From Pseudomonadota bacterium (GTDB lineage: Bacteria > Myxococcota_A > UBA9160 > SZUA-336): a stretch of DNA of 64,000 bases. The first letter of the stretch is position 1. Every line of letters begins with the position of its first letter. Location of the stretch: assembly GCA_021295775.1 (NCBI GenBank), contig JAGWBS010000014.1, positions 10,199-74,198 on the forward strand, given 5' to 3'. The position numbers and the translations under genes were made by a program. This document shows, piece after piece, positions 4,416 to 18,798 of this stretch. Under the pieces are notes generated by a model. That model made no database searches. It saw only the letters and a program-made list of their open reading frames with translations, and was not told where the DNA came from.

Positions 4416-5272
4416 GGTGGGGGATTCCCGGGATCGGCTTGTTCGTCGGGGCGGCCCTCAAGGATCCGACGGTACCGGTGGCGGAACTCGGCCTCCGGCA
4501 TCCGGCCCTCCCGGCGCGCCTCGAGCAAATCGGCCAGGGACCGGAGCTGGGCTTGGCTGAGTTCCTCGGCGGGGGGCGTCTCGAAATCCGAGCCCGACTC
4601 GGTCTCGGCGGGTTCTCCCAGCAGGACGGTCCGGCGCTTCATGCGTCCCTTGCGCACGCGCAGGCTCATCGGTCTGCGGTAGAAGTCGTCGCGCCAGAAG
4701 ACGCGGACTCCGCGCGCGCCTTGCGAGAGCTGGGCCTCGCCCGCGACGAGCCTGAAGTCCGGCAGGTCGGGGGGGAGAGCCAGCGGGATGGAGTAGGCAT
4801 GGAGCCCTTCGCTGTCGTCGCTGTCCTCCAGGTCCCACTCGACGTCGAAGAACTCCAGCAGCAGGGCGTCGTCCTCGACCGCGGCGCGCAGGGCGGTCAC
4901 GCGGTCGATCGTGAAAACGCCAAGGCGGCGGTCGCGCACGAGGGTGGCGGCGACGACTTCCTGATCGGGGGAGGCGCGGCCCAACGCCGAAGAGAGTCCC
5001 TCCGCCAGATCGTAGACGTGCAGCGAGCGGATCGTCGGCGCGCGCCGGCCCTGCTTGTCTTCGTGCACCAGGGAGGCCAGAACGTGCGCGATTCTCACGG
5101 CCTCGATCTCCGCCGGATGGGCGTAGCCGCGCGGCAGGATCTGGCCCGACTGCTCGCGGTGGCGCAGCTCGACTTTCACCCGCGGGCTCTCGATCACCGT
5201 CTCGCTCACGAGCCGGGTCCCGCACGCGGCGCAGAGGAGGGCCAGGGCGGCGGCGAAAAGTCTCGACCCCAT
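4412..5272 (-). CDS. lipoprotein, function unknown
   Basis: Start taken at the internal ATG 5272: 'MGSRLFAAALALLCAACG' is a signal peptide with a lipobox (LLCAAC). 286 aa. Stop overlaps the hydrolase start (GTGA). Confidence 0.55.
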   Translation of the reverse strand: MGSRLFAAALALLCAACGTRLVSETVIESPRVKVELRHREQSGQILPRGYAHPAEIEAVRIAHVLASLVHEDKQGRRAPTIRSLHVYDLAEGLSSALGRASPDQEVVAATLVRDRRLGVFTIDRVTALRAAVEDDALLLEFFDVEWDLEDSDDSEGLHAYSIPLALPPDLPDFRLVAGEAQLSQGARGVRVFWRDDFYRRPMSLRVRKGRMKRRTVLLGEPAETESGSDFETPPAEELSQAQLRSLADLLEARREGRMPEAEFRHRYRRILEGRPDEQADPGNPPP

Positions 5273-5318
5273 GCGGGCGAGAATAGCCGAAGCGCGTGCC
5301 CGGCCGCTCCGAGCCCCG

Positions 5319-5347
5319 TTGACATCGCCCCTCCCGCTGCCTAGTTT
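5319..5347 (+). promoter_or_regulatory. sigma70-like promoter upstream of the nuoA-like gene (TTGACA 5319-5324, 17-nt spacer, TAGTTT 5342-5347)
   Basis: Perfect -35 hexamer at consensus spacing from a TAnnnT -10, in the divergent intergenic region between the lipoprotein and nuoA. Confidence 0.4.
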
Positions 5348-5364
5348 CAATCCCGATTCCCCCC

Positions 5365-5739
5365 GTGTTTTCAACCGTTTACTGGTCGAGCATGGGTGAA
5401 TTCGCGGCACTCGTCCTGTTCGGGGCGCTCAATCTGCTGGCCCTCGGACTCGGGATGATCCTGGCGCGTCCGAGACGCGCGAAGCGCTCTACGCCGCTTG
5501 CCGTGCCGCTCGACTGCGACGTTCGGTTCCCGAGCGGGCCGCGGGGAGCGAGCGTGCCGCCCGTCGCGGCCGCCCTCTTGTTCGTGCTGTTCGAACTCGC
5601 GCTGGTTCTGCTCCTGCCGTGGGCGCTCGCGTTCCGTTCGCTGGGCGCGCAGGCGACCTGGGTCGCCCTTCCGGTGCTGGCCGCGCTGGGCAGCGGCCTG
5701 GCCTACGCATGGCTGAGGGGGGGCTTCGCGTGGGAGTGA
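5365..5739 (+). CDS. nuoA: NADH-quinone oxidoreductase subunit A (ND3)-like membrane protein, divergent
   Basis: 124 aa, 3 predicted TM helices. 'PLDCDVRFPSGP...AALLFVLFELALVLLLPWALAF' aligns to the NuoA core (P(Y/F)ECG...FD(V/L)E...L(F/Y)PWA), with ECG replaced by DCD. Start is GTG 5365 or ATG 5392; neither has a clear SD. Confidence 0.7.
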   Translation: MFSTVYWSSMGEFAALVLFGALNLLALGLGMILARPRRAKRSTPLAVPLDCDVRFPSGPRGASVPPVAAALLFVLFELALVLLLPWALAFRSLGAQATWVALPVLAALGSGLAYAWLRGGFAWE

Positions 5740-5766
5740 GCCGCTCCCGGACGGGCGGTTGAGGCG

Positions 5767-6894
5767 ATGCAAAGCGCCCCGGTCTGGAACACCTCTCTGC
5801 TTTGGATCTTGCTGGTCGCGGGCCTGCCGGTCCTGGTCTGGCTGGATCGATTCCAGCTCTCCCTGATCCAGGGCCGGCGCGGCGTGCTTCGGATCGCTCC
5901 GCCGCGCCTCGACGGGCGCGCTCTGCTGCAAGGCGCGATCGAGGCGTACAGGCGCCTCGTCTGGCCGGGCGAGGACTCGACCTCGTCCGAGCTCGCCTGG
6001 TCGCGGGTCTGGGTGCCGTCGCTGCGGACGTTCCTGCTTCTGCTGGCTCTGGCCGCGGTGCCCTGGGGGACGAGCTACGCGCTGTCCGGAGGCGAGTTCA
6101 GGCTGGTCGTCGCCGACCTCGAGTACGCCGCGGCCTATGTGGTCGGGATCGCGGCGCTGGCGGCTCTGGTGTCGGCGGTCGAGGCCTGGGGGGCCGGGAG
6201 CGGCCCGGACGCGGGTGCCGCGCTGCGCTCCTCCGCACAGACGCTCGCGGGGCACGCGGCCCTGTTCGCTTCGCTGCTGGCGATGCTCCTGATCTACGGC
6301 ACTCTCGACCTCGGCGAAACGGTGCTGGCGCAGCAGAGCAGCCTGCGGGCGCTGGGCTTCCTGCAGGCCGTCTGGCCGGCGGCGGCAGAATCGGCCTGGG
6401 TCGACTCCCTGCGGATTCCGGCCTGGGGAATCGTGCTGCAGCCGCTCGCGTTTGCGCTTTTCCTGGTCTCCGCCCTGGCCTGGGCCGGGGGTGCCGGGAT
6501 CGGAGATCCGCGCGCCGGCGAGGGCAGCGGAGCGCCGGCCGATCCGTTGCGCCTCGACCGCCGCGTGCAGGACCTTCTGATGGCCTCGCTGGCGACCTGT
6601 GTCTTCCTGGGCGGCTGGTCGCTGCCGTGGATTTCCGACATTCGGCTGCTGGCCGCGTGGACACCCGTGCTCGGCGGCGAGCTGGCGCAGTTCGCCCTTC
6701 TGCTGCTCCACCTGCTGCTGTTCGGGCTGAAGGTGGTCTCGCTGCTCGGCCTGTTCACCTGGGTGCGCGTCGCGGGCCCGTTCTCTCGACTGGAGCGGGT
6801 GTTGGGCTTCGGCTGGAGGCGGTTGTTCCCGCTGTCGCTGGCGAACCTGGTTCTGACCGCCGCCGGAATCGCCGCGCTGGGGGCGGGGCGCTGA
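5767..6894 (+). CDS. nuoH: NADH-quinone oxidoreductase subunit H (ND1)-like membrane protein, divergent
   Basis: 375 aa. SD GAGG before the ATG. 'GAALRSSAQTLAGHAALFASLL' and the C-terminal 'LKVVSLLGLFTWVRVAGPFSRLERVLGFGWRRLFPLSLANLV' match NuoH signatures (LRSSAQ; WIR...R.DQL..FGW..L.P). Confidence 0.75.
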   Translation: MQSAPVWNTSLLWILLVAGLPVLVWLDRFQLSLIQGRRGVLRIAPPRLDGRALLQGAIEAYRRLVWPGEDSTSSELAWSRVWVPSLRTFLLLLALAAVPWGTSYALSGGEFRLVVADLEYAAAYVVGIAALAALVSAVEAWGAGSGPDAGAALRSSAQTLAGHAALFASLLAMLLIYGTLDLGETVLAQQSSLRALGFLQAVWPAAAESAWVDSLRIPAWGIVLQPLAFALFLVSALAWAGGAGIGDPRAGEGSGAPADPLRLDRRVQDLLMASLATCVFLGGWSLPWISDIRLLAAWTPVLGGELAQFALLLLHLLLFGLKVVSLLGLFTWVRVAGPFSRLERVLGFGWRRLFPLSLANLVLTAAGIAALGAGR

Positions 6895-7385
6895 TGTCGG
6901 CGCAGCTCTTCTGGGCGCTGGCGGGAGCGGTCCTGGCCGCGGCCTCGGTCGTGGTCTCGTCCGGCTCGAGCCGGCTTCGCGGCGCGCTGGGCCTGGCCGG
7001 GACCTTCGCAGGACTCGCCTGCCTTTTCGCTCTCCTGGGCGCGCCACTGCTGGGCGCGTTCTGGCTGGTCGCGGCCGCTGGAAACGGGCTGGCGCTGTTC
7101 CTGCTGGAGGCTTCCGGTCCCCCGGAGCGCGGCCCCGCCGAAGCCGGCCGCCAGCCGCTGCTGAAGCTGGCGGGAGCGGCGCTGGCGATCGGCCTGGTCG
7201 CCGGGGGGATCGCGATCGTGTACCGGCCCGGGTCGTTCACGGACGCGCTGCCCGGGTCCATCGGGCCGGGCAGTCTGGGCGCCAGCCTGTACTCGCAGCA
7301 TGCGCTGGCGGTCTACACGGCGGCGGCGCTGCTGCTGGCGGCGGTCGTGGCGACGCTGGCGCTGGGCAAACGGAGGGCAGACTGA
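6894..7385 (+). CDS. nuoJ: NADH-quinone oxidoreductase subunit J (ND6)-like
   Basis: 163 aa. ATG 6894 overlaps the nuoH stop (TGATG). 'FWALAGAVLAAASVVVSSGSSRLRGALGLAGTFAGLACLFALLGAPLLGAFWLV' fits the NuoJ N-terminal TM pattern. Confidence 0.7.
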   Translation: MSAQLFWALAGAVLAAASVVVSSGSSRLRGALGLAGTFAGLACLFALLGAPLLGAFWLVAAAGNGLALFLLEASGPPERGPAEAGRQPLLKLAGAALAIGLVAGGIAIVYRPGSFTDALPGSIGPGSLGASLYSQHALAVYTAAALLLAAVVATLALGKRRAD

Positions 7386-7693
7386 TGGCTCCCGCCGGCC
7401 TCGCCGAGGTCCAGCTGGTCGCCCTGCTGCTTTTCGGGATCGGTCTTCTGGGCGCGATCCTGCGCCGACGCGCGGCGTCCGTGCTGGCCTCGGTCCAGCT
7501 CTGTTTCGGCGCGGCGAGCCTGTCGCTGGTCGGGTTCGGCCAGAGCGCCGCGGACGGCGCGGGGCAGGTCTTCGCCCTGCTCGCGCTGGTGGTCGTGGTG
7601 GCCAACCTCTGCGTGGGAACCGCCATCGTCATCGGAATGCGGCGCAGCCGGAACAGCGCCGACGTCGAGGACTTCAGCGCCATGCGCTGGTAG
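7385..7693 (+). CDS. nuoK: NADH-quinone oxidoreductase subunit K (ND4L)
   Basis: 102 aa. ATG overlaps the nuoJ stop (TGATG). 'LLLFGIGLLGAILRRRAASVLASVQLCFGAASLSLVGF...GQVFALLALVVVVANLCVGTAIVIGMRRSRNSADVED' closely follows the NuoK consensus. Confidence 0.85.
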   Translation: MAPAGLAEVQLVALLLFGIGLLGAILRRRAASVLASVQLCFGAASLSLVGFGQSAADGAGQVFALLALVVVVANLCVGTAIVIGMRRSRNSADVEDFSAMRW

Positions 7694-7700
7694 GTGCGAG

Positions 7701-9713
7701 ATGGACGAGCACGTCAGTCAGTCGATCCGCTGGATCCCTTCCCTGCCCCTGCTGGCCGGAGCGCTCGGAGCGGCCTGGCTGATATTCGGGCGCCGGGCGT
7801 GGCCTCGCCTCCTGATCTGTTCGTGGCACATCGGGGGTCCGCTCGCCGCATTCGCCAGCTCGGTCTGGTTGACCTGGGATCTCGCCACCCGTTTCGCTCC
7901 GGGCGAGCGCTTCCTGGTCGACGAACTGGGAACCTGGATCTCTGCGGGGGATTTCCACGCCGGGCTGACGCTGCGGCTGGACCCTCTCTCCGCGGTGTGC
8001 GCCATGGCCGTCAGCGCCGTCGCCGTCCTGGTGCATGTGTACGCGCTCGGCTTTTCCCGGCGGGACCCGAACGGCCCGGACCTGCAGCGCCTGTTCAGCG
8101 TTTCGAATCTGCTGCTGTCCGCCGTACTGGTCCTGTTCCTGGTCGACCACCCCAGCGTTGCGCTGCTGGCCTGGCAGACGCTCGCTCTGGGCGGTTCCGC
8201 TCTGGTCGGCTTCCGCTCCGCCAAGGAATTCCACACCGCGGCGGCGGAGCGCTTCGCCGTGCTTCAGCGCGTGGGCGATCTGGCGCTCCTGCTCGCGCTG
8301 CTGGCGCTTTTCTGGACGCTCGGCGGGCAGGCGTCGCCCGGACTCGAATCCCCGGAGATCGGTCCGGGCAGTCCGCCTCCGGCCGGGAGCGATCTCGAAG
8401 CCGGATCCGGTGAGCTTCAGGGGCCGGTGACCGCGGCCCGCGAAGCGGCCCCGAGCGGGGCCTTCACGCTGGTGGGCTTTTTGCTGCTCGCCTCCGTGGC
8501 CATCAAGGCCCAGCAGCTGCCCTTCCCCGAATGGCGCAGCGGCAGCGTCGCGCCGGTTCCCGCGACGGCGATTTTGCAGTCCCTGTGCCTGACCCTGCCG
8601 CCGGTCTATCTGTTGAGTCGTCTTTCGTTCGTGTTCGAAAACGCGCCTCTCGCGGGAAGCGCGCTGGCGTGGTGCGGGGCCGTGACGAGCCTGACCGCCG
8701 CGCTCGCGGCCCTCTACGCCTCGGACCTGCGGCGCGCGTTCGCCTATTCGAGCGTGAGCCATCTCGGGGTCGCTCTGGCTGCCGCCGGCCTGGGCGCCTA
8801 CGGCGCGGCGGTGTACTACGCGCTCGGGCAGACATTGATCCGGCCCCTTCTTCTGCTGTCGGGCGGCTCGGTCATCCTGGGACTGGGAGGGGAGACTCGG
8901 CTCGACCGAATGGGGGGGCTGCTGAAGTCCCTGCCCTGGACGCACGTGGCCTTCTTCTCGGGCAGCGTCCTGCTGCTGCTGCTGCCGCTCTCCGCGGCCG
9001 GGCAGGCGTGGGTGTCGCAACCGCCGGCCGGGTGGTTCGTGCTGGCGGCAGTCGGCGGTCTGGCGGTCGCCGCGCTCACGCTGCACACGACTCTGCTGTA
9101 TCTCCGGATGTCCACCGGCCGACCGAGCGCCTCCCCGGGAGCGCGGCTGAATCCGTCGGAACGCGAATCGTCGCTCGTGTTCGGGATGGGGGGGCTCGCG
9201 GCGCTCGCTCTTTTCATGCTCTGGGTCGCCGGTCTGCCGGATCCGGTCGGGGCAGCGCTCGGCGTCGAGCGCTCGAACAGCCTGCGGCATTTTCTGGCCC
9301 CCGTTTTCGGCGCGGGCAGCGGCGAGTTCGATTCCCGGGTCGCCGCCTGGGCCGCGTCGTGCATCGGGCTCGGCTTCGCGGCGGCGCTTCTGGCCGACGG
9401 ACAGCGCCGGCGCGGGCGACCCTCCTGGGTCCAGCGGCTGGCCCCGCTGCTCGGGAGCGCCGCGAAAGTCCAGCGCCTGGACAGCGTGGCGACGCGGCTC
9501 CTGGTGCGGCCGCTGCTGAGTTTCGCGCACGCCGTCCGATGCGAGGTCGAGTCCGGCCTGTACGAGAGAGGCGCGGAGGCGGGCGCGCGTCTGACGCGCG
9601 GACTGGCGCAGCGCCTGGCGAAGCTGAGCCAGAACGGCCTGGCCCAGTCGTATCTCGTCGGAAGTCTGATCGGCGCCGCGCTGCTGCTGGTCTACGTGCT
9701 GCGGGGAGCGTGA
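7701..9713 (+). CDS. nuoL: NADH-quinone oxidoreductase subunit L (ND5)-like antiporter-type subunit
   Basis: 670 aa. N-terminal region 'LDPLSAVCAMAVSAVAVLVHVYALGFSRRDP...FRSAKEFHTAAAERFAVLQRVGDLALLLALLALFWTLGG' is a clear NuoL/Proton_antipo_M match. Long C-terminal extension typical of NuoL. Several canonical motifs are substituted (see findings). Confidence 0.8.
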   Translation: MDEHVSQSIRWIPSLPLLAGALGAAWLIFGRRAWPRLLICSWHIGGPLAAFASSVWLTWDLATRFAPGERFLVDELGTWISAGDFHAGLTLRLDPLSAVCAMAVSAVAVLVHVYALGFSRRDPNGPDLQRLFSVSNLLLSAVLVLFLVDHPSVALLAWQTLALGGSALVGFRSAKEFHTAAAERFAVLQRVGDLALLLALLALFWTLGGQASPGLESPEIGPGSPPPAGSDLEAGSGELQGPVTAAREAAPSGAFTLVGFLLLASVAIKAQQLPFPEWRSGSVAPVPATAILQSLCLTLPPVYLLSRLSFVFENAPLAGSALAWCGAVTSLTAALAALYASDLRRAFAYSSVSHLGVALAAAGLGAYGAAVYYALGQTLIRPLLLLSGGSVILGLGGETRLDRMGGLLKSLPWTHVAFFSGSVLLLLLPLSAAGQAWVSQPPAGWFVLAAVGGLAVAALTLHTTLLYLRMSTGRPSASPGARLNPSERESSLVFGMGGLAALALFMLWVAGLPDPVGAALGVERSNSLRHFLAPVFGAGSGEFDSRVAAWAASCIGLGFAAALLADGQRRRGRPSWVQRLAPLLGSAAKVQRLDSVATRLLVRPLLSFAHAVRCEVESGLYERGAEAGARLTRGLAQRLAKLSQNGLAQSYLVGSLIGAALLLVYVLRGA

Positions 9714-9716
9714 GCG

Positions 9717-11354
9717 GTGGACGGCCTGGCGTATCTGGCCGAACGGCACCTGCTGACGTCGATCGTGTTTCTCCCGCTGGCCGGCGCCCTGGCGCTGCTC
9801 CTGCTCGAAGTCTCCCTGACCGCGCTGAGCAGCTCGATCCAGCGTTTCTCGGCGCTGACATGGCGGGTGTTCGGTCTGGTTTTCGCGCTGCTGGGGCTGG
9901 CCCTGGCGGCCGAGCTCTGGCTGCTTTTCGATCCCGCCGCGGGGGGACTGCAGTTGGTCGAGCACGCGGCCTGGCTGGGAGACTGGGGGGTCTCCTACTA
10001 CGTCGGTGTCGACGGAATCTCGCTGCTGCTGGTCATGCTGGCCGCCTTCCTGTACCCGCTCGCTCTGCTGGCGTCCTGGGGCGAGCCCTCCGAACGGGCT
10101 CGGCACCTGGTGGTGCTGCTCTCCGCGCTGCAGACCGGACTTCTGGGCGCACTGCTGAGCCTAAACTTGCTCACGTTCTTCGTCTTCGTCGAAGCCTCGG
10201 CCGTCCCGGTCTACTTCCTCGTCGGCCTGTGGAGCCGGCGCGGAAGCGGGGCCGCCACGCGCTACATGCGCCTCTCCGCGCTCGGTTCCGCGCTGCTGCT
10301 GCTGGGAATCTTGCTCTTGGGCAGCCTTCACGCGCAGCAGTTCGGAGCGACGAACTTCGACCTGTTCGGATTCGGCGGGGCACCCGGCCTGATCGAGACC
10401 GAGCTGGACGGCGCCGGACCCTGGTGGACGGCGCAGGGATTTCTCTTCGCCGCGTTCGCCATCGCCCTGTTCATCAAGGCGGGTCTGTTCCCGCTGCATT
10501 TCTGGACGCCGGACGCGACCGTCGAGAGCCCGCCCTCCGCCTCGGTGCTGCTGGCGGCGGTCGGCCTCAAGCTCGGGGCCTACGGTCTGGTGCGCTTCGC
10601 CCTGCCGCTGTTTCCGCTCGCGGCGGCCGCCTGGGCCCCCTGGATGTGCGCGTTGGGCGGGCTGGGAGCGCTGTACGCGGCGCTGCTGGCGGTCGTCCAG
10701 ACCGATCTCGAGCGCCTGGTCGCCTATTGGTCGCTTTCCATCATGGGCCTGGTCTGCCTGGGCATCTTCGGACTCAACCCGATCGCGCTGGAGGGCGCCC
10801 TGCTGCAGATGGTCCACCACGGCCTGGTGATCGGCGGGCTCCTGCTGCTGTCCGGCATGCTCGCGCAGCGCCGGGCGATCTCCCGGCTCGGCGAGTTGAG
10901 CGGGCTCGCCGGGAGCATGCCGGTGTTCGCGGCGATCTTTACCCTGCTGCTCCTCAGCGCGGCCGGCACGCCCCTTCTGGGCGGTTTCTCCGCCGCCTGG
11001 CTGATCTTTCTGGGGGCCTATCCGAGCGCCCCCTGGCTGGCCGCCGCGGCGATTCTGACGCTTGGGCTGCTGGCGGTCTTCGCGTTCTGGCTGCTGGGAC
11101 GCGCGCTGTTCGGAGCTCTTCCCGGCGGAGGGGGTCGGCAGCTCGCGGAGTTGGACCTGCGCGAAAAGCTGGTGGCCTGCAGCGTCGCGCTCCCGGTGCT
11201 CTGGATGGGCCTGTCGCCCATGACGTTTCTCGGTCCGGTCGAGCGGTCGGTCGGCGAGCTGCTCGAATCGATGCAGCGTCGGGGCGCCGCGGGAATGGAG
11301 TCCGGCCCCGAAGCGGCCGCGCAGCCTCGGCCCGGCCGCGGAGCGGGGAATTGA
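9717..11354 (+). CDS. nuoM: NADH-quinone oxidoreductase subunit M (ND4)
   Basis: 545 aa. 'FFVFVEASAVPVYFLVGLWS' (canonical F.FWEA...P.YFLIG.WG) and 'LFPLHFWTPDATVESPPSASVLLAAVGLKLGAYGLVRF' retain the conserved Glu and Lys. Confidence 0.85.
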   Translation: MDGLAYLAERHLLTSIVFLPLAGALALLLLEVSLTALSSSIQRFSALTWRVFGLVFALLGLALAAELWLLFDPAAGGLQLVEHAAWLGDWGVSYYVGVDGISLLLVMLAAFLYPLALLASWGEPSERARHLVVLLSALQTGLLGALLSLNLLTFFVFVEASAVPVYFLVGLWSRRGSGAATRYMRLSALGSALLLLGILLLGSLHAQQFGATNFDLFGFGGAPGLIETELDGAGPWWTAQGFLFAAFAIALFIKAGLFPLHFWTPDATVESPPSASVLLAAVGLKLGAYGLVRFALPLFPLAAAAWAPWMCALGGLGALYAALLAVVQTDLERLVAYWSLSIMGLVCLGIFGLNPIALEGALLQMVHHGLVIGGLLLLSGMLAQRRAISRLGELSGLAGSMPVFAAIFTLLLLSAAGTPLLGGFSAAWLIFLGAYPSAPWLAAAAILTLGLLAVFAFWLLGRALFGALPGGGGRQLAELDLREKLVACSVALPVLWMGLSPMTFLGPVERSVGELLESMQRRGAAGMESGPEAAAQPRPGRGAGN

Positions 11355-12865
11355 CGCTGGATTCAGATGCGACCGCGGTGGCGAGCCTGGCGCTCGGCGC
11401 GCTGGCTCTGCCCCTGGCCGACGTCCTGCTGGCGCGCAAACGCTCGCTTCTGGGCGCCCAACTCACCCGGGAGCGGCGCGGTTCCTATCTGGCCTTCGCG
11501 ACCGGGCTGACGATCGCGATCGCGCTGCTGTTCACGTTGGCGTCCGACGGAACGGGCCTCCCGCTCGATCCGAATCAGCCGCTGGCGACCTTCGATGGCC
11601 TGTCGCGTTTCCTGGGCGCGGTGACGCTGGGCACCGCTCTGCTGACGGTGCTGTCCACGAACCGCTACCTCGCCGGCGCGGGCACCCGCCACGGCGAGTA
11701 CTACGCTCTGCTGCTGGCTTCTCTGCTGGGACTGGTCCTGCTTCCCGCCTGCACCCACATGGTGTCGCTGTACCTGGCGCTGGAGCTGGCGAGCGTGCCC
11801 GGCTACGCGCTGGCGGGAATCCGCCGCGACTCGCCGCGCGGCAGCGAAGCCGCGCTCAAGGCCTTCCTGGCGGGATCGGTCTCCTCGGCGGTCCTGCTCT
11901 ACGGAGCGGCTCTGCTCTACGGCGCCACCGGCGAACTCGCGCTGCTCGAGATCGGGCTTGCGCTCGACCCCGGCGAGCCGCTCGCGCTTCTGGGCGGCGG
12001 GCTGGTGCTGATCGGTCTGGCCGGCAAGCTCGCCATCGTCCCGTTCCACCAGTGGAGCCCGGACACCTTCGAGGGCGCACCCGTCGGCGTGGTGGCGTTT
12101 CTGGCGACGGCCTGGAAGATCGCCGTGCTGGGTGCCCTGGTCCGGGTTCTGACGCTCGCGCTCGCCCCCGCAGAAGAAGCGTTCCAGGCCGTGCTGTGGG
12201 CGCTGGCGGCGCTGTCGATGACGCTGGGCAACTTGGCCGCGCTGGTCCAGCGCAACACCAAGCGCATGTTCGCGTACGCTGGTCTGGCTCACCTGGGCTA
12301 CGTGGTGCTGGGCCTGCGGGTGGGCGGCGCCGAGGGAACGGCGGCGGTGCTGTTCTTCCTGCTCGCCTACGCCCCGGCGGCCCTGGGCACCTTCGCGGCG
12401 ATCTCCGCGCTGGCGCGCGACGGCCGCGAGTCCGACCGTCTCGAGGACCTGGCGGGACTGTTCCGGCGCCAGCCGCTGCTGGCTCTGGCGCTGGCGGTCT
12501 GCGTCTTTTCGCTGATCGGCGTTCCGGGGACGGCGGGGTTCGTCGCCAAGTTCCAGCTTTTCTCCGTTTCTCTCTCGCAGGGCGTGGCGGCGGGCGACAC
12601 CGGTCTGGTCCTGCTGACGGCCCTGGCGCTGGCGAACGTGGCGCTCTCGGCGGTCTTCTACCTGCGGGTTCCGGTCGCCCTGTTCATGCGCGAGGACTCG
12701 GGGACGGGCCCCGGCGGAACGCCGGGTTCCCTCGACCGGGCGGTTCTGGCGGGCTGCGCGTGGGCGGTACTGATTCTCGGCATCGCGCCGCAGGACGCGG
12801 GCGTGATCGTTCCGGGCGGCGACCTGCTGCGGCTGGCACAGGGCGCGGCCGGGGCGCTCTACTGA
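11351..12865 (+). CDS. nuoN: NADH-quinone oxidoreductase subunit N (ND2)
   Basis: ~504 aa. 'YLALELASVPGYALAGIRRDSPRGSEAALKAFLAGSVSSAVLLYGAALLYGATGEL' and 'KLAIVPFHQWSPDTFEGAPVGVVAFLATAWKIAVL' are canonical NuoN. Start uncertain: in-frame TTG 11351 overlapping the nuoM stop (ATTGA) or GTG 11378. The listed 1444-aa ORF (8531..12865) is shadow upstream of this point. Confidence 0.8.
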   Translation: MTLDSDATAVASLALGALALPLADVLLARKRSLLGAQLTRERRGSYLAFATGLTIAIALLFTLASDGTGLPLDPNQPLATFDGLSRFLGAVTLGTALLTVLSTNRYLAGAGTRHGEYYALLLASLLGLVLLPACTHMVSLYLALELASVPGYALAGIRRDSPRGSEAALKAFLAGSVSSAVLLYGAALLYGATGELALLEIGLALDPGEPLALLGGGLVLIGLAGKLAIVPFHQWSPDTFEGAPVGVVAFLATAWKIAVLGALVRVLTLALAPAEEAFQAVLWALAALSMTLGNLAALVQRNTKRMFAYAGLAHLGYVVLGLRVGGAEGTAAVLFFLLAYAPAALGTFAAISALARDGRESDRLEDLAGLFRRQPLLALALAVCVFSLIGVPGTAGFVAKFQLFSVSLSQGVAAGDTGLVLLTALALANVALSAVFYLRVPVALFMREDSGTGPGGTPGSLDRAVLAGCAWAVLILGIAPQDAGVIVPGGDLLRLAQGAAGALY

Positions 12866-12909
12866 TTCCCGGCTGGGTCCCCGAAGGCCCGATCGGAGAA
12901 TCATCGCCC

Positions 12910-12926
12910 GAGCCGCCGGGCGGCTC
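12910..12926 (+). terminator. putative hairpin after nuoN (GAGCCGC-cgg-GCGGCTC)
   Basis: Perfect 7-bp stem 45 nt after the nuoN stop. No clear U-tract. Confidence 0.25.
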
Positions 12927-12943
12927 GAAATCGCTTGGCCTCC

Positions 12944-12972
12944 CGAGTGGGCTTTCCCATACTGTCGGAGGG
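12944..12972 (+). promoter_or_regulatory. candidate promoter for the TonB-dependent receptor (TTGGCC, 17-nt spacer, CATACT)
   Basis: 4/6 matches to both hexamers at consensus spacing, ~60 nt upstream of RBS GGAGTGGAG and the ATG at 13035. Confidence 0.3.
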
Positions 12973-13034
12973 ATGGAGCGAACCGATGGGGGCGCCGAGT
13001 CGTCCTCGGGCGTTCGTCCGGAGGGAGTGGAGTT

Positions 13035-16000
13035 ATGTTCTTCAGCCGCAAGGCCGGTGACACCGGTTTGTGTTCGCAGCTGGTCGCGGCCGGGGTCGCC
13101 GCGGGATTCCTGATCTCGGCGGCATGGGCCGGAGCGGAGGAGACGGCGGGTTCGGAGGGAGCCTCTTTGGGTCCGCTCTACGCCCAGGCGGACGCCGACG
13201 CCGCGCCGGCCCCGGAGGCGGCGGCGGAAGACGATGATCGCGTCGGCATCGAGCAGATCACGGTCACCGCGCGCCGCCGCGAGGAGGTCGCGCAGGACAT
13301 CCCGCTGGCAATCACCACGCTGGGCGCCGACGAGATGGAGGCCACCCAGCTCGTCGACTACCAGGACCTGCAGTTCAACGTCCCCAACCTCGCCTACACC
13401 AAGACCAACTTCAGCGGCGGCGGGTCGCTTGCGATCCGCGGCATCGGCCGTTCGGTGATCGCGGCTTCGGGCGAGAACAGCACCGGCGTGCACGTCAACG
13501 GCGTCTCGCTGGTCGCGGCCCGCATCTTCGAAGCGGAGTTCTTCGACACCGAGCGGCTGGAGGTGCTGCGCGGCCCGCAGGGCACGCTGTACGGGCGCAA
13601 CTCCTCGGCGGGCGCGGTCAACGTCATCACCCGGCGCCCCACCGATGAGGCCGGCGGCTACCTGGAGGCCGAGTACGGCGACTTCGACCACACCAAATTC
13701 AAGGGCGCGCTGAACCTGCCGCTGAGCGAACGCCTGGCGGTGCGCCTGGCGGGCTTCTGGCTCGATCGCGAGGGCTACACCGACAACCTCGCCACCGGCA
13801 ACGACATCGACGACCGCTCGATCTGGGGGCTGCGCTTCTCGGCCGACTTCCAGGCCAGCGACCGCACCAGCGCCAAGCTGACCGTGAGCCTGTTCGACGA
13901 GGACGATCACCGCTCCCGCTCGCACAAGCAGGTCTGCAACACCGACACGGCGGACGGCGGCAACCCCGCGCTGTTCTTCCTGAACGTCGGCTGCCGCGGG
14001 ACCGAGGACCTGGGCGAGGGCTCGATCAACGGCCTGGCCACCCTGGGCGGTCTGTTGAACGCCGTGGTCTGGTGGGATCCGGCGGTCGGAGACTTCTGGC
14101 GGGCCGACACCCAGGCCGGCTGTCCGGGGGCCGCCGCGGGTCTGTCCTGCCTGGGCTACTTCCCCACCGTCTTCAACGGCCAGCAGCTGCGGACCAACAA
14201 CTTCTCGCAAGCCGTGAATCCGAGCAGTCTGCGCGACCTGAGTTCCCCCCTCGACCCGGACTACCAGACGGACGAACTCGTCGCCTCGTTCGAACTGGGG
14301 CACGAGTTCGAGCGCTTCACGCTGACGTCCATCACCGGCTGGGCCGACCATGAGGTCAGCAGCCTCCAGGACTACTTCTGGACCTACGACCCCACGCCCC
14401 TGGGCTGGAGCGCCGCCAACGGCGGTCGCGGGCCGGAGTTCGACTTTCCGGGCACCGGGCTCGGCGGCCACTACACCGGAGACCTGGCCTTCGACACCTC
14501 GGATCAGAAGAGCGATCTGTTCTCCCAGGAGATCCGCTTGGCCAGCGAGTTCGAGGGGCGGGTGAACTTCACCGCCGGGGCGATCTACACGCGGTCGCGC
14601 GGCGAGACCGCCTATGGGGTCTACGCCGGAGCACTGGAGTCGTTCTACAGAGCCAACAACAATCTGGCGAACGCGACGGACGCCCAACTCGCCCCGCTGA
14701 CGGGCGCGCTCAAGGGAGCCGGCGTGCTCCCCGACGCCGCTCCCGACGGGATCGCCGGCCTGGCCGCGCTCGGCGCCGCCTGCGCCCCGACACTGACCGC
14801 GATCGGACAGAGTCCGGCCTTATGCGCTGCGACGGGGCTGTTGCCCTTCGTCGGCCCCTACGACCCGAACCTGACCTACTTCCTGGCCGAGACGCCCGAT
14901 CTGGAGCTGGAATCCTACGCCGGGTTCGGCGAGGTCTACTTCGACCTGTCCGACGACACCCGGGTCACCGTCGGCGGCCGGCTGACCAACGATAAAAAGT
15001 CGGTCCGCGACCGCAGCGGGAACCTTTTCTCCTACGGCGACCCCGACAACGACGGCGAGTTCGGAGAGTACGAACGGCGCAGCGAGCGCTGGACCAAGTT
15101 CACCGGAAGGCTGGGGATCGATCACCAGCTCCGGCTGGCCATCGGCGACGCGCTGGTCTACGCCAACGTCTCGACCGGCTTCAAGAGCGGCGGCTTCAAC
15201 AACTCGGGCGAGTTCACTCCGCCGACCTTCGACGAGGAGGAGATCACCAGCTACGAGGTCGGCTGGAAGAGCCTGCTCTTCGACAACCGCCTGCAGCTCA
15301 ATCTGACCGGTTTCTTCTACGACTACGAGGGCTATCAGATCTCCAAGATCGTCAACCGCACCGCGCTCAACGAGAACGCCGATGTGGAGATCCGCGGCTT
15401 CGAGCTGGAGTCGGTCTTCCGGCCCACGCGGGCGCTGCAGTTCGACTTCAGCCTGAGCTGGCTGGACAGCGAGATCCAGGACTTCCGCTCGGTCGACCCG
15501 ATCAACATGACCGCGGGACGCCCCGGCTACACGATGTTCAAGGACGTGTTTCAGCCCGTCCCCAACGGCCAGAACGCGGTGATGCTGCAGAGCGACCTTC
15601 TGCCGTGCCTGACGGGCGCTTCGCTCGTGGCCTGCGCTTCGTACAATCCCATCGGCTTCGAGAGCGACCTGGATGGAAACGAACTGCCGCAGGCGCCCGA
15701 GCTGACGGTCAAGCTGGGCGGCCAGTACACCTTCGAGCTGGGCGAGCGCTACCAGGTCACGCTGCGGGCGGACTGGTACTGGCAGGACGAGACCTGGGGC
15801 CGGATCTACAACCTGGGCCGCGACGAGATCGACAGCTGGTCGCAGCTCGACGCCCAGATCGTCTTCCAGCCGGTGGACGCGCCCTGGTCGCTGCGCGTCT
15901 GGGGCAAGAACCTGGCCGACAACGACGACATCACCGGCATGTACCTGACCGATCCGACGTCGGCGCTGTTCACCAACCTGTTCATTCTCGAGCCGCGGGT

Positions 16001-16043
16001 CTTCGGAGCCTCGGTCCGCTACGAGTTCGGCTCGAACGACTGA
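13035..16043 (+). CDS. TonB-dependent outer-membrane receptor
   Basis: 1002 aa. Signal peptide. Plug domain 'IEQITVTARRREEVAQDIPLAITTL...' through 'ERLEVLRGPQGTLYGRNSSAGAVNVITRRP'. Long beta-barrel. Ends 'RVFGASVRYEFGSND', four residues beyond the usual terminal aromatic. Confidence 0.85.
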   Translation: MFFSRKAGDTGLCSQLVAAGVAAGFLISAAWAGAEETAGSEGASLGPLYAQADADAAPAPEAAAEDDDRVGIEQITVTARRREEVAQDIPLAITTLGADEMEATQLVDYQDLQFNVPNLAYTKTNFSGGGSLAIRGIGRSVIAASGENSTGVHVNGVSLVAARIFEAEFFDTERLEVLRGPQGTLYGRNSSAGAVNVITRRPTDEAGGYLEAEYGDFDHTKFKGALNLPLSERLAVRLAGFWLDREGYTDNLATGNDIDDRSIWGLRFSADFQASDRTSAKLTVSLFDEDDHRSRSHKQVCNTDTADGGNPALFFLNVGCRGTEDLGEGSINGLATLGGLLNAVVWWDPAVGDFWRADTQAGCPGAAAGLSCLGYFPTVFNGQQLRTNNFSQAVNPSSLRDLSSPLDPDYQTDELVASFELGHEFERFTLTSITGWADHEVSSLQDYFWTYDPTPLGWSAANGGRGPEFDFPGTGLGGHYTGDLAFDTSDQKSDLFSQEIRLASEFEGRVNFTAGAIYTRSRGETAYGVYAGALESFYRANNNLANATDAQLAPLTGALKGAGVLPDAAPDGIAGLAALGAACAPTLTAIGQSPALCAATGLLPFVGPYDPNLTYFLAETPDLELESYAGFGEVYFDLSDDTRVTVGGRLTNDKKSVRDRSGNLFSYGDPDNDGEFGEYERRSERWTKFTGRLGIDHQLRLAIGDALVYANVSTGFKSGGFNNSGEFTPPTFDEEEITSYEVGWKSLLFDNRLQLNLTGFFYDYEGYQISKIVNRTALNENADVEIRGFELESVFRPTRALQFDFSLSWLDSEIQDFRSVDPINMTAGRPGYTMFKDVFQPVPNGQNAVMLQSDLLPCLTGASLVACASYNPIGFESDLDGNELPQAPELTVKLGGQYTFELGERYQVTLRADWYWQDETWGRIYNLGRDEIDSWSQLDAQIVFQPVDAPWSLRVWGKNLADNDDITGMYLTDPTSALFTNLFILEPRVFGASVRYEFGSND

Positions 16044-16525
16044 GGCTCGTCCACCCCGCGGCTCTCCGGCTCCCGAGCCTCGGGCTCGGGGGGCGGCCGC
16101 ACCCGCAGTTCGAGTTCGACGGGCGCGCGCAGGGAGTTGGTGATCAGGCAGTTGCGCTCCGCCTTTTGCAGCAGGCGCTCGGCGCGCGCGACGCGCACGC
16201 CCGGGTCGAGTTCGAGATCGGCGCGGATGCGCAGCGCGGTCAGGCGCGCCCCGCCGGGCGCGGAGTCGATGGTCCCCTCCGCGCTGCAGTCGAGCCGGCG
16301 GAAGCCCAGTCGGGAGGCGGCGGCGCCGATCCGGAACGACAGCGAGAAGCAGTCGGCCGCGGCGGCGACCAGCAGCGCGCCCGGCGACCAGGCGTCTCCG
16401 GGTCCGCCGTGGGCCGGCGCGGCGTCGGTCTCCAGGTCCGGCAGGCCGTCGGCGCTGAGCCGGACGCGCCCGGTGGGGCGAGCCCGCGCCCGCACCGTGT
16501 AGCTCTGGGGGTAGGCGGCGCCCAA
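16019..16525 (-). CDS. OsmC/Ohr family peroxiredoxin-like protein
   Basis: 168 aa. 'GALLVAAAADCFSLSF' and 'KAERNCLITNSL' are the two conserved Cys-containing OsmC motifs. TTG start 16525, 4 nt after the selenoprotein stop. 3' end overlaps the convergent TonB receptor by 25 nt. Confidence 0.75.
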   Translation of the reverse strand: MGAAYPQSYTVRARARPTGRVRLSADGLPDLETDAAPAHGGPGDAWSPGALLVAAAADCFSLSFRIGAAASRLGFRRLDCSAEGTIDSAPGGARLTALRIRADLELDPGVRVARAERLLQKAERNCLITNSLRAPVELELRVRPPPEPEAREPESRGVDEPQSFEPNS

Positions 16526-16529
16526 GCCG

Positions 16530-16754
16530 TCAGCCGGAGCCGCCCAGGCGTTCCAGGATCTCGGCGTGCTCGGGGAAGCGCCCGGTCCGGTGCTTGGAGA
16601 AGATCAGGTCACCGTCCCGCTTCACCTCGAAAACTCCGTTGTCGCCCTTGATCAGACTCGCTTCTCCGCCGGTCACCCGCCTGATCTCGGCCGCCAAACT
16701 GGTGGCCTGGGGCAGGTAGTTTCAACGCACGCAGTATTCGATCGAGATCTCCAT
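16530..16754 (-). CDS. SelW/Rdx-family selenoprotein (74 aa) with in-frame UGA (Sec) at 16722-16724; absent from the ORF track
   Basis: Minus-strand ATG 16754. Read-through translation 'MEISIEYCVRUNYLPQATSLAAEIRRVTGGEASLIKGDNGVFEVKRDGDLIFSKHRTGRFPEHAEILERLGGSG'. CxxU redox motif, then GG...FEV...G.L..SK...GRFP as in Rdx/SelW proteins. Lies 108 nt downstream of selB, 4 nt upstream of OsmC. Confidence 0.6.
16689..16707 (-). promoter_or_regulatory. candidate bacterial SECIS hairpin 14 nt 3' of the UGA codon
   Basis: mRNA GGCC-A-CC-AGUUU-GG-CG-GGCC: GGCC/GGCC outer stem, CC/GG inner stem, apical loop containing G-U. Begins 14 nt after UGA, the expected SelB-binding position. Confidence 0.3.
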
Positions 16755-16862: not shown

Positions 16863-18788
16863 TCAGCGTTTCCGCAGGACGCGGGTGTTGCCGACCCGGC
16901 GGGTGACTTTGCGGGCGTCGAAGTATTCCATCAGGGGAACGGTGTGCTTGCGGGTCTGTCCGGTGAGCTGCTTGTAGCGGACCGGGTCGATCTCGCCGTG
17001 CTGTTTCAGGAAGGCGACCAGCCGTCCGCTCAGCTCCTCGAGCGCGGCGGCGTCGAAGTAGCGGCCCGGCGCGACCCGCTCGAGCCGGCCCTGGCGCACC
17101 CAGTGGTCGAGCACGGGCTGGAGCGCGCGCGCTTCGCAGCCCAGCTCGCGAGCCAGCGCTTCCTGAGTGTCCGGCGCGAGCCCGGCGCCGCAGATGCGCT
17201 CCAGGAGACGCTCGGCCAGTTCCTCGTCGGCCGCGTGCGCGACGTGCTCCGGCGCGCGGTAGCCGGTCTCGCCCGAGAGCAGGGCTCCGCCGCGGACCGC
17301 GGCCGCCAGCGCGGCGCGCAGCGCCTCGTCGCGCGCGTGGCGGCGGACGCGCGCGCGCACGCCCGCGAACCCCACCCAGGGATCGGTCGGGACCTCGGCG
17401 TGATGCGCCCGGACCGCCTCCACGGCCAAGCGTTCGAGCTGCGCGAAGGCCTCGCGGTGCAGCCAGCGCCCGCCGCCCACCGCGACCCCGTCGAGCGACT
17501 CCAGCGAACGCACCTCGCGCAGCAGCTCGGCCTCGGTCGCCCCGCGCAGTCCCGCGCGCTTCAGGCGCGCGGCCAGGGCCGCGGAGCGGTCGCCGGAGGC
17601 CGCGACCTGCAGGTCCCGCGAACGCTCTTTCCGCCTGCGCCGACCTCGCGCGGGCACCGCGTCCAGCACGACTCCACCGCCGATCGTCCAGCCGGCCTCC
17701 GGGATCCTGCGGTAGCCGCGCAGGATGAAGCGGTCGCCCTCCACCACGGGGACCGGCGAGTCGAAGCGGAATTGCGCGAAGGCGCGGTCTCCGGGCTCCA
17801 GGCGCTCGGCGTCCAGCAGGCGGATCCGGGCCGGGCGCTCCGAGGTGCCGACGTGCAGCGCGACCCGCGCGCCGTCGTCCAGCGGCGGGGCCGCGTCCAG
17901 CAGGCGCACTTCGGCCTCGACCCGGTCGCGGTAGTCGAGCCGGCCGGGCGTCGCCAGCACGCTGCCGCGCGGGACGGCTTCGACTTCGACGCCCTGCAGG
18001 TTGACCGCGCAGCGCGAACCCGGCTCGGCCCGCGCGACCGTCTCCCCGTGCACCTGCAGTCCTCGGATTCGGGCCTGGGCCGCGACCCGGCCGCCCTCCG
18101 GCAGGATCTCGATATTCTGCCCCTCGTTCAGTTCCGAGCCGCGCAGGGTTCCGGTGACCACCGTGCCGAAGCCGCGCATGCTGAAGGTCCGATCGACGGG
18201 CAGCCAGGCCGGGCCGTCGCGCAGCGTGCGGCCGGCGCTGCGCTCCGCCGCGCGCTCGAGCGCCGCGATCAGCTCGTCCATGCCCCGGCCGGTGTGCGCG
18301 GACACCGCCACCACCTCGGCCCGGTCCAGGCTCGAGACCGCCAGCTCTTCTTCGACCTCGAGCCGGGCCAGTTCCAGCAGATCGGCCTCGACCGCGTCCG
18401 CCTTGGTCAGCGCCACCACCCCGGCGTCGATGCCCAGCAGCGAGCAGATCGCCAGGTGCTCGCGGCTCTGCGGCATGATGCCCTCGTCGGCGGCGACCGC
18501 GAACAGCACCAGGTCGATCCCGGTGGCGCCGGAGACCATCGTGCGCACCAGCCGCTCGTGCCCCGGCACGTCGACCACGCCCAGGCCGCGGCCGGAGGGC
18601 AGTTCCAGCGGCGCGAAGCCCAGCTCGATGGTGATCCCGCGCGCCTTCTCTTCCGGGAGCCGGTCGCAGTCGACCCCGCTGAGCGCGCGGATCAGCGAGG
18701 TCTTGCCGTGATCGATGTGGCCGGCGGTTCCCAGGATCAGCCGGCGGCTTCGCTCCGCTTCGGTCCGACCCGCTCCGCCCGGCTTCAC
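16863..18788 (-). CDS. selB: selenocysteine-specific translation elongation factor
   Basis: 641 aa from GTG 18788 (SD GAGCGGGG). GTP-binding N-terminus '[43 protein letters not shown]...[10 protein letters not shown]'. C-terminal winged-helix region '[33 protein letters not shown]'. Upstream part of the listed ORF (to 19043) overlaps serS and is discarded. Confidence 0.85.
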
Positions 18789-18798
18789 GGGGCCCCGC

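Follow-up and report, generated by a model that had tools for sequence, protein, structure and literature searches.

Can the membrane arm of respiratory complex I outlive the electron-transfer arm that drives it, and if so, what is it kept for? This question is raised by a 64,000-nucleotide stretch of contig JAGWBS010000014.1 (hereafter the window, meaning the whole stretch analysed), in which seven tightly coupled open reading frames (ORFs) on the + strand, at window positions 5392-12865, encode homologues of NuoA, NuoH, NuoJ, NuoK, NuoL, NuoM and NuoN. The explanation that we prefer, and to which we assign a probability of about one half on the basis of comparative sequence analysis, is that this operon derives from the membrane arm of a split complex I, would no longer be coupled to redox chemistry and would be retained in some secondary capacity.

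Seven membrane subunit genes without an electron-input module in the 64-kb window

An earlier note, made from the sequence of the window alone, had proposed that the seven genes represent the membrane subunits of complex I in canonical order and that no gene of the quinone (Q-) or NADH (N-) module accompanies them. Both points hold. Pfam models recognise all seven expected families (Oxidored_q4, NADHdh, Oxidored_q3, Oxidored_q2 and three Proton_antipo_M across the seven ORFs), the top NCBIfam match of each protein is the corresponding Nuo model, and tblastn searches with E. coli NuoB, NuoCD, NuoE, NuoF, NuoG and NuoI found no match in the entire 64-kb window.

All seven genes lie on the + strand, and their junctions are as had been read from the sequence. 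The nuoA-like gene (5392-5739, 115 amino acids (aa)) has an ATG start, which we prefer over the alternative GTG at 5365 because it yields the 115-aa product that gene callers predict on identical contigs. After a gap of 27 nt, with GAGG ahead of the ATG, follows the nuoH-like gene (5767-6894, 375 aa), whose stop is overlapped by the start of the nuoJ-like gene (6894-7385, 163 aa) in a TGATG at 6892-6896, and the nuoJ stop is overlapped in the same manner by the start of the nuoK-like gene (7385-7693, 102 aa; TGATG at 7383-7387). Spacings of 7 nt and 3 nt, respectively, precede the nuoL-like gene (7701-9713, 670 aa), annotated at NCBI as 'hypothetical protein J4G09_04290', and the nuoM-like gene (9717-11354, 545 aa), which starts with GTG. 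The nuoN-like gene (11351-12865, 504 aa) begins with a TTG that overlaps the nuoM stop (ATTGA), a start supported by the N-terminus MTLDS... that it has in common with its counterpart in the related locus L004.

Loss of coupling and pumping residues

Residues were checked by alignment to the E. coli nuo operon, which provides the numbering, and to a canonical Myxococcota relative. The set scored for the E-channel and quinone site (Q-site) comprised NuoH E36, R37, D63, E157 and the loop between transmembrane helices (TM) 5 and 6 from D213 to Y229, NuoA E51, D79 and E81, NuoJ Y59, and NuoK E36 and E72. Mutagenesis of complex I in E. coli and Thermus has established that NuoK E36/E72, NuoH E157 and its acidic loop, NuoA E81 and its ECG loop, NuoJ Y59 and NuoL E144/K399 are required for assembly or coupled activity.

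The NuoH-like protein matches at 3 of the 13 scored positions. Its acidic TM5-6 loop (PFDxPExExE...EYsG) is swapped for a Gly/Pro/Ala-rich loop that is 9 residues shorter, and the TM1-2 loop of the NuoA-like protein reads DCD instead of ECG, E51D and D79E in this protein being conservative; the alignments thus confirm the replaced NuoH loop and the LDCD in place of (Y/F)ECG to which the earlier note had drawn attention. In the NuoL-like protein one of eight scored residues is kept, and the reported loss of the conserved His and Lys applies to H254Q, H334Y, H338Q and K342R but not to the TM7 Lys, K229, which is retained. The companion claim that NuoM and NuoN preserve their canonical Glu and Lys residues is correct for NuoN, where all five key residues are present (E133, K217, K247, H305, K395), and for NuoM E144, K234 and K265, which together with H348 make four of six, but it fails at the TM12 Glu of NuoM, which is replaced (E407A), as is its H322 (H322I). 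Beyond what was first noted, the losses extend to NuoA E81A, to NuoH E157H and a change of ER to DR in TM1, to the TM3 motif of NuoJ ('vYAGAi', here 'AAAGNG'; Y59A), to both membrane-buried Glu of NuoK (E36Q, E72N) and to NuoL E144Q and K399/D400, in addition to the two NuoM substitutions. With NuoK E36/E72, NuoH E157 and the TM5-6 loop and NuoA E81 gone, the conclusion that this module does not dock or couple to a canonical NuoBCDI as in normal complex I is upheld.

Residue loss and loss of nuoEFG across loci

A clade-specific NuoH alignment was used to scan species-representative genomes, in which it identified 79 loci; their gene content was determined by tblastn within +/-10 kb. The nuoA-EFG-HJKLMN arrangement, with no nuoB, nuoC, nuoD or nuoI within 10 kb, is carried by about 27 representatives of Myxococcota or 'Deltaproteobacteria' and by one of Holophagales, Planctomycetota and others have ordinary 14-gene operons, and L031, L035, L036 (the same as L005), L044 and L053 show the A-HJKLMN content of the window. 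Around these EFG-less loci tblastn detected no NuoB, NuoC, NuoD or NuoI within +/-10 kb.

Residue loss goes with this difference in gene content. All 13 tabulated loci with nuoEFG or a full operon keep every E-channel and pump residue, bar single substitutions in L076 (at NuoL K399/D400), L059 and L082, and every scored EFG-less locus (the window, L004, L005/L036, L031, L035, L044, L053 and L089) has lost many of them. Locus L091, assessed by its NuoH, likewise combines the A-HJKLMN architecture with a degenerate NuoH. NuoA E81, NuoH E157 and NuoL E144 are lost in every scored EFG-less locus. Most of these loci also have an altered or deleted acidic loop in NuoH, and the Lys at NuoL K399 is missing or changed to Arg. 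What all of them retain is NuoN E133, with K217 and K395 present as K or R. Also kept across the EFG-less loci are N526, S527 and Q644 in the C-terminal extension of the NuoL-like protein, which is alignable to the canonical relative and which we interpret as comprising the lateral helix and an anchoring terminal TM. The losses are graded: the mildest case is L089, in which damage is confined to the NuoH loop, NuoA and NuoL, and NuoK, NuoJ Y59, NuoM and NuoN are intact; the window has in addition lost the NuoK residues, NuoJ Y59 and NuoM E407; and L005/L035 go further, having lost NuoM E144, K234 and K265 and NuoN K247.

A transitional state is seen in L083 (L083 positions 6452-9725; CAZETS010000010.1, labelled uncultured Spirochaetaceae), which has the order nuoA-F-G-H-J-K-L-M-N and has lost many of the scored residues in its membrane subunits, though only nuoE is gone. 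Its NuoF-like ORF is full-length and lacks the GRGGAGF, GD(E)EPG and CGEE motifs for flavin mononucleotide and NADH as well as one Cys of cluster N3, and its NuoG-like protein keeps the iron-sulphur Cys. In its sister L044, nuoE, nuoF and nuoG are all gone. The seven membrane ORFs are intact and hydrophobic in the EFG-less loci checked, with the exception of a nuoJ-like ORF that was unrecovered in L044. The Spirochaetaceae titles of L036 and L083, both of which have Myxococcota-type synteny and nuo genes, probably reflect mis-binning or mis-classification of metagenome-assembled genomes (MAGs).

Degenerate NuoH proteins are not confined to these few genomes. In an exhaustive profile search of 1.84 billion representatives of clusters at 50 % identity, of which the best 132 full-length ones were scored, 36 were degenerate (at least 36 clusters at 50 % identity) and 89 matched at least 11 of the 13 NuoH positions, most of these matching all 13. 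The genomic context of three degenerate clusters (L089, the contig of P0070, and L091) reads gpsA followed by A-H-J-K-L-M-N in each case.

Chromosomal position and origin of the operon

Close relatives of the NuoH-like protein are few: an identical MAG protein, a relative of 57 % identity (P0002, from L004) and then proteins of about 32 % identity from Myxococcota MAGs. The L004 locus matches the window in both its seven genes and their flanks, with proteins 58-77 % identical to those of the window. At the same chromosomal site the Myxococcota MAG locus L002 carries nuoA-E-F-G-H-J-K-L-M-N, the window proteins being 31-48 % identical to its products, and upstream the two share ogt, a Cys/Met-metabolism enzyme (lyase), PHP, a nucleoside hydrolase and a 286-291-aa protein. 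The window also shares SelB and SerS with loci carrying nuoA-EFG-HJKLMN. An all-against-all comparison of flanking ORFs across 16 loci identified FeoAB, GpsA, the ~286-aa protein, the nucleoside hydrolase, PHP, SelB and SerS as neighbours common to EFG-containing and EFG-less loci, which are therefore positional orthologues; in the same comparison no partner gene specific to EFG-less loci was found, all their conserved neighbours occurring at canonical loci too.

Neighbour-joining on H+L+M+N, a crude distance tree that is prone to long-branch effects, groups the EFG-less loci into a single clade with long branches that falls within the Myxococcota A-EFG-HJKLMN loci, and this nested rather than basal placement argues against a pure long-branch artefact. 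The operon is hence not an orphan, as it had been called, since it occupies the position of a Myxococcota-type nuoA-EFG-HJKLMN operon, has the same neighbours and falls inside its clade in that tree. Cultured myxobacteria (Myxococcus, Stigmatella, Anaeromyxobacter) have their nuo genes split into nuoEFJKLMN and nuoIHGDBA (PMC2330069), and because split operons are normal in the phylum the absence of BCDI in cis is unremarkable in itself. The A-EFG-HJKLMN arrangement looks like a split of a different kind, and the BCDI genes of the canonical genomes that carry it are presumably in trans. This arrangement was observed in L002, L008, L010-L030, L032, L034 and L088, from Myxococcota-type MAGs, and in L076 from Holophagales, and its NuoG is short (467-548 aa).

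Divergence from family models and retention of the fold

The NuoA-like protein matches Pfam Oxidored_q4 with E = 1e-10 in its C-terminal half only and scores 39 bits with NCBIfam NuoA models whose cut-offs are 145-164. The NuoH-like protein scores 100 bits with Pfam NADHdh, 80 bits with the best NCBIfam NuoH model (cut-off 305) and 40 bits with the best NuoH sequence in the PDB, and the NuoJ-like protein 42.5 bits with Oxidored_q3 and 23 bits with NCBIfam (cut-off 154). The NuoL-like protein matches Proton_antipo_N and Proton_antipo_M and reaches 224 bits with the NuoL equivalog, whose cut-off is 556. The scores of A, H, J and L are thus 3- to 7-fold under the equivalog cut-offs. For NuoK, Oxidored_q2 gives 62 bits and one of six NCBIfam models passes its cut-off; M and N pass at the level of TIGR subfamilies only, NuoM with 378 bits for TIGR01972 (NDH_I_M, cut-off 263.8) and NuoN with 340 bits for TIGR01770 (NDH_I_N, cut-off 332.6).

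The AlphaFold model of the NuoH-like protein has a predicted local distance difference test value (pLDDT) of 69 and a predicted template modelling score (pTM) of 0.73, the loop at 242-258 being disordered, and when this model was submitted to Foldseek all top matches were NuoH, NdhA or ND1, with template modelling scores of about 0.7. Hydropathy profiles of the seven proteins correlate with those of a canonical relative at r = 0.71-0.88. Judged by these models and profiles, the complex I fold is retained in the seven proteins.

Selective constraints on the seven genes

Ratios of nonsynonymous to synonymous divergence (dN/dS) were estimated by the Nei-Gojobori procedure with bootstrap confidence intervals (CI), and all the figures are rough under the strong G+C bias at third codon positions of these genomes. 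Between the window and L004 (dS 0.4-0.6) we obtained 0.55 for A (CI 0.35-0.88), 0.62 for H (0.49-0.79), 0.57 for J (0.36-0.84), 0.52 for K (0.29-0.91), 0.39 for L (0.31-0.48), 0.29 for M (0.22-0.36) and 0.34 for N (0.26-0.43), so that all seven intervals lie below 1. Flanking genes of the same two loci gave 0.14-0.38, the canonical pair L002/L013 at the same dS gave 0.10-0.27 and a second degenerate pair (L044/L083) 0.32-0.52, selection on A, H, J and K of the window being 2-5 times more relaxed than in canonical relatives. These figures indicate that selection is relaxed, most of all on A, H, J and K, yet not absent. No frameshift separates the window from L004 over 7.5 kb, and protein lengths are either equal or 1-3 aa apart. 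That the membrane module is still under selection for something is argued most strongly by the persistence of all seven membrane genes in an operon whose three N-module genes have repeatedly been deleted or inactivated.

Functional interpretation and alternative explanations

Placing these results into a model requires a course of events such as the following. The ancestor, in a Myxococcota-type lineage, would have had a split complex I with one operon nuoA-EFG-HJKLMN and with NuoBCDI presumably elsewhere. In one sub-lineage the enzyme would have ceased to work as an NADH:quinone oxidoreductase, after which the N-module genes would have been deleted or would have decayed. The residues that relay the quinone reaction to the membrane (NuoH TM5-6 loop and E157, NuoA loop and E81, NuoJ Y59, NuoK E36/E72) are gone, as are the distal pump residues E144 and K399/D400 of NuoL, and the seven membrane genes have remained intact, with translationally coupled ORFs and hydrophobic products, under purifying selection that is relaxed but real. 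Their products probably still assemble into a complex-I-like membrane arm, in which the sole remaining proton-transfer chain, supposing that ions are conducted, would run via NuoN and, in the lineage of the window, mostly via NuoM too. With no working Q-module, as we infer, such an arm would act as a redox-independent, gradient-driven conductor of H+ or of cation/H+, or as a membrane scaffold, and not as a redox-driven pump. Because NuoN E133 is kept everywhere and the equivalent Glu of NuoL is lost everywhere, we favour gradient-driven conduction via NuoN/NuoM in a seven-subunit scaffold. A wider statement, that a Myxococcota-type clade has long kept a NuoAHJKLMN arm after discarding the electron-transfer arm and the coupling residues, as a 'pseudo-complex I' under selection for a redox-independent job (gradient-driven movement of H+ or of cation/H+ via NuoN, or a structural one), is offered tentatively, its chances being in our view slightly worse than even.

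Several observations weigh against a redox-uncoupled arm kept for a secondary role, apart from the roughness of the tree and of the dN/dS estimates already mentioned. The values of 0.5-0.6 for A, H, J and K are high and fit recent, incomplete decay as well. Intact ORFs are weak evidence of function, given that a G+C content of 71 % keeps ORFs open and that the non-catalytic NuoF-like ORF of L083 is itself intact. The losses vary by lineage, so that a shared ion pathway, if there is one, must be minimal, consisting of NuoN E133, K217 and K395. Only 18-43 % of the positions conserved in canonical proteins stay conserved in the degenerate clade, in which we found no newly conserved polar or charged residue, a combination that fits relaxation rather than the gain of a new defined activity. 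All this, together with the patchiness of the catalytic losses, could be expected if the operon were a non-functional relic, a dead complex I in slow decay whose ORFs remain open because a high-GC genome rarely makes stops. We nevertheless consider a relic unlikely: every one of the seven genes has a dN/dS significantly lower than 1, and the values of L, M and N (0.29-0.39) are comparable to those of ordinary genes nearby (0.26-0.38); at a dS of ~0.5 there are almost no indels, and no frameshift, across 7.5 kb; the seven genes are intact in every EFG-less locus checked (bar L044 nuoJ), with at least 36 degenerate NuoH clusters, while nuoE, nuoF and nuoG were deleted repeatedly; and the buried E133 of NuoN persists in every lineage while the NuoL equivalent is lost in every lineage. 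That last pattern also bears on a purely structural role, in which the seven proteins would serve as a scaffold or assembly partner for other respiratory complexes and move no ions. We regard this as a serious alternative, if a rather improbable one, since most of what is conserved relates to the fold (positions of Trp, Arg, Gly and Pro, the hydropathy, and the three polar positions in the NuoL C-terminus) and the charged pump residues have proved dispensable in several lineages; a scaffold without a known partner would, however, hardly explain why NuoN E133 and its Lys/Arg partners are kept in all lineages while their equivalents in L, and often in M, are replaced.

Two further explanations would leave the arm coupled to electron transfer. 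Exchanges of the peripheral module are known among complex I relatives such as Fpo, NDH-1, Mbh/Mbx and Campylobacter NuoX/Y, and the cytoplasmic loops of the NuoH-like protein are remodelled rather than simply truncated, so the operon could encode a docking platform for another electron-input or catalytic module in place of NuoBCDI, as the earlier note had suggested for a partner not yet recognised. Precedent exists in that complex I relatives have swapped such modules repeatedly (Spero et al. PMC4453560). The suggestion does not find support here, and we think it quite improbable: no gene is tied specifically to the EFG-less operons, whose conserved neighbours are all shared with canonical loci, the remodelled NuoH loop varies from one EFG-less lineage to the next, being absent, shorter or otherwise altered, no newly conserved polar residue or docking loop has arisen, and the E-channel residues used by any redox-coupled relative are gone, including both Glu of NuoK. 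The least probable explanation, and one that we strongly disfavour, is that of an ordinary split complex I in which the seven genes encode a working membrane arm and NuoBCDI (with EFG) are encoded elsewhere in the genome. Split nuo operons are the rule in Myxococcota (PMC2330069), and some 27 uncultured relatives with nuoA-EFG-HJKLMN and no BCDI in cis are canonical at the key residues where these were tabulated. The window, on the other hand, has lost all the residues required in E. coli and Thermus, of which those in NuoH are invariant or nearly so in 89 of the best 132 full-length representatives, its A, H, J and L proteins fall far short of the equivalog cut-offs, and selection on its A, H, J and K genes is relaxed to the extent given above.

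If the redox-uncoupled interpretation is true, this pseudo-complex I would be the first instance in which the evolution of complex I has run in reverse, in the direction of an Mrp-like or scaffold state. Complex I research is short of natural variants that have a membrane arm but no redox arm, and the graded series from L089 through the window to L005/L035, plus L083 with its dead NuoF, would show which residues are dispensable once redox coupling is gone. The persistence of NuoN E133, K217 and K395 would bear on how antiporter-like subunits are driven and on whether single subunits work autonomously. Metabolic reconstructions that count 'nuo genes' would, moreover, wrongly credit such organisms with complex I. 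Should the operon be a slowly decaying relic, its interest would be limited to that of an example of large-operon decay.

Neighbouring genes and other observations

The flanks of the operon are as the earlier note described them, with an unassigned 286-aa protein and a nucleoside hydrolase (IU_nuc_hydro) upstream and a TonB-dependent receptor with a Plug domain downstream; TonB receptors, OsmC, SelB, SerS, CoA-transferases, a luciferase-like oxygenase and similar genes make up the other annotated genes of the window. The promoter with a perfect -35 element that had been attributed to the operon does not stand up to examination. What is present in the 5' intergenic region is a bare TTGACA hexamer (5319-5324, +; possible -35), followed after 17 nt by TAGTTT, which agrees with the -10 consensus at three of six positions, and a consensus promoter scan of 5100-13200 reported no site. 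Since chance alone should produce about 7 hexamers of this kind across the window (an estimate from base composition), the hexamer is weak evidence of a promoter. Terminator-like matches were no commoner than in shuffled sequence.

The TonB-dependent receptor (~1000 aa), which lies between nuoN and the OsmC/Rdx/selB block, is present in the lineage of the window only (13035-16043, +, in the window; 13174-16170 in L004, where it is called as three fragments that may be due to frameshifts or assembly errors); in loci outside this lineage SelB lies directly 3' of nuoN. Between OsmC (16019-16525) and selB (16863-19043) we observed a 74-codon SelW/Rdx-like ORF on the - strand (16530-16754; 'MEISIEYCVR-TGA-NYLPQATSLAAE...') in which an in-frame TGA at 16722-16724 produces a CxxU motif. 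Adjoining selB, this ORF probably encodes a selenoprotein. The same ORF occurs in L004 and L089, where gene callers shorten it and Pfam recognises Rdx (PF10262).

Two observations concern other loci of the set. In L059 and L062 (uncultured Bdellovibrionales / Deltaproteobacteria MAGs) tblastn gave nuoD-E-G-H-J-K-L-M-N with canonical membrane residues, no nuoI between H and J and no detectable nuoF, which is another unusual split arrangement. In the Nitrospirota MAG locus L050 (8397-9566) the normal C-terminus of a NuoD homologue is replaced by a ferredoxin-like extension rich in Cys (CKGCGMCLRACP...CVGCATCFVTC), which may represent a NuoD-NuoI-like fusion or an artefact of ORF calling.

Comparison with known systems

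The direct evolutionary source of the operon is to be sought among the split nuo operons of Myxococcota, including the uncultured nuoA-EFG-HJKLMN type, with which it shares the neighbourhood, the order of A and H-N and two clade-specific insertions in NuoH, and from which it differs by the absence of nuoE, nuoF and nuoG, by the loss of their coupling and pump residues and by the relaxed selection on A, H, J and K. Its closest relatives all come from Myxococcota-type MAGs.

Membrane-only nuoAHJKLMN operons are already known, and the systematic degeneracy is the new part. They have been described in the marine actinomycetes Salinispora, Streptomyces and Kocuria (Penn & Jensen 2012, PMC3314556; PMC6676996), for which a stand-alone H+/Na+ translocator was proposed and remains unproven, and in Bdellovibrionota (PMC13147790), in a paper that proposes no function. 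The operon of the window is identical to these in gene content and order and in having no peripheral-arm genes. The published genomes also hold a complete nuo operon (PMC3314556; PMC6676996; PMC13147790), and NuoJ of Salinispora has diverged so far that it was given a hypothetical annotation (PMC3314556; PMC6676996); these papers report no loss of catalytic residues of the kind seen in the window. In the searchable literature, which is incomplete, we found no report of the loss of coupling residues, of its exact correlation with the loss of the N-module or of a derivation from Myxococcota nuoA-EFG-HJKLMN operons. An apparent link of the NuoL-like protein to the actinobacterial partial operons did not hold up in the one hit inspected (Nocardioides lentus), which belongs to a canonical 14-gene operon and is probably a composition-driven match. 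Searches of plasmids returned no match for the NuoH-like protein and only the nuo operons of rhizobial megaplasmids for the NuoN-like protein.

Enzymes of 11 subunits (cyanobacterial and plastid NDH-1, Fpo, 'Nuo11') resemble the operon in having no NuoEFG, and the NuoH-like model fits NdhA and NuoH about equally well. Unlike the window, in which there is no Q-module in cis and the coupling residues are lost, these enzymes have NuoBCDI, retain the full set of E-channel and pump residues and work as redox-driven pumps. Partners of the Mbh/Mbx/Ech/Hyf/Fpo type (NiFe-hydrogenase-like proteins, FpoF/FpoO) were found neither in the operon nor in its flanks, and the FpoH model gives 67 bits on the NuoH-like protein against a cut-off of 475.

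The obvious functional analogy is with Mrp (Mnh/Pha), whose NuoL/M/N-like and NuoK-like subunits form a membrane complex that works independently of redox reactions. In the complementation work of Moparthi et al. in 2011, MrpA and MrpD could reportedly be replaced by NuoL and NuoN of E. coli. The proposal of the earlier note that the operon encodes a stand-alone Mrp-like translocator has indirect support, in that NuoN is intact and so is most of NuoM. Several points speak against it: NuoL, the counterpart of MrpA, is the most damaged of the antiporter-type subunits and lacks their TM5 Glu and TM12 Lys, which are kept in NuoN and mostly in NuoM; the operon has no homologues of MrpB, MrpE, MrpF or MrpG and has, in turn, homologues of NuoH, NuoA and NuoJ; and Mrp family models score 50-130 bits on its proteins against cut-offs of 540-1100, far below the Nuo models. 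From these comparisons we favour the view that the operon may work somewhat like Mrp, not that it is an Mrp.

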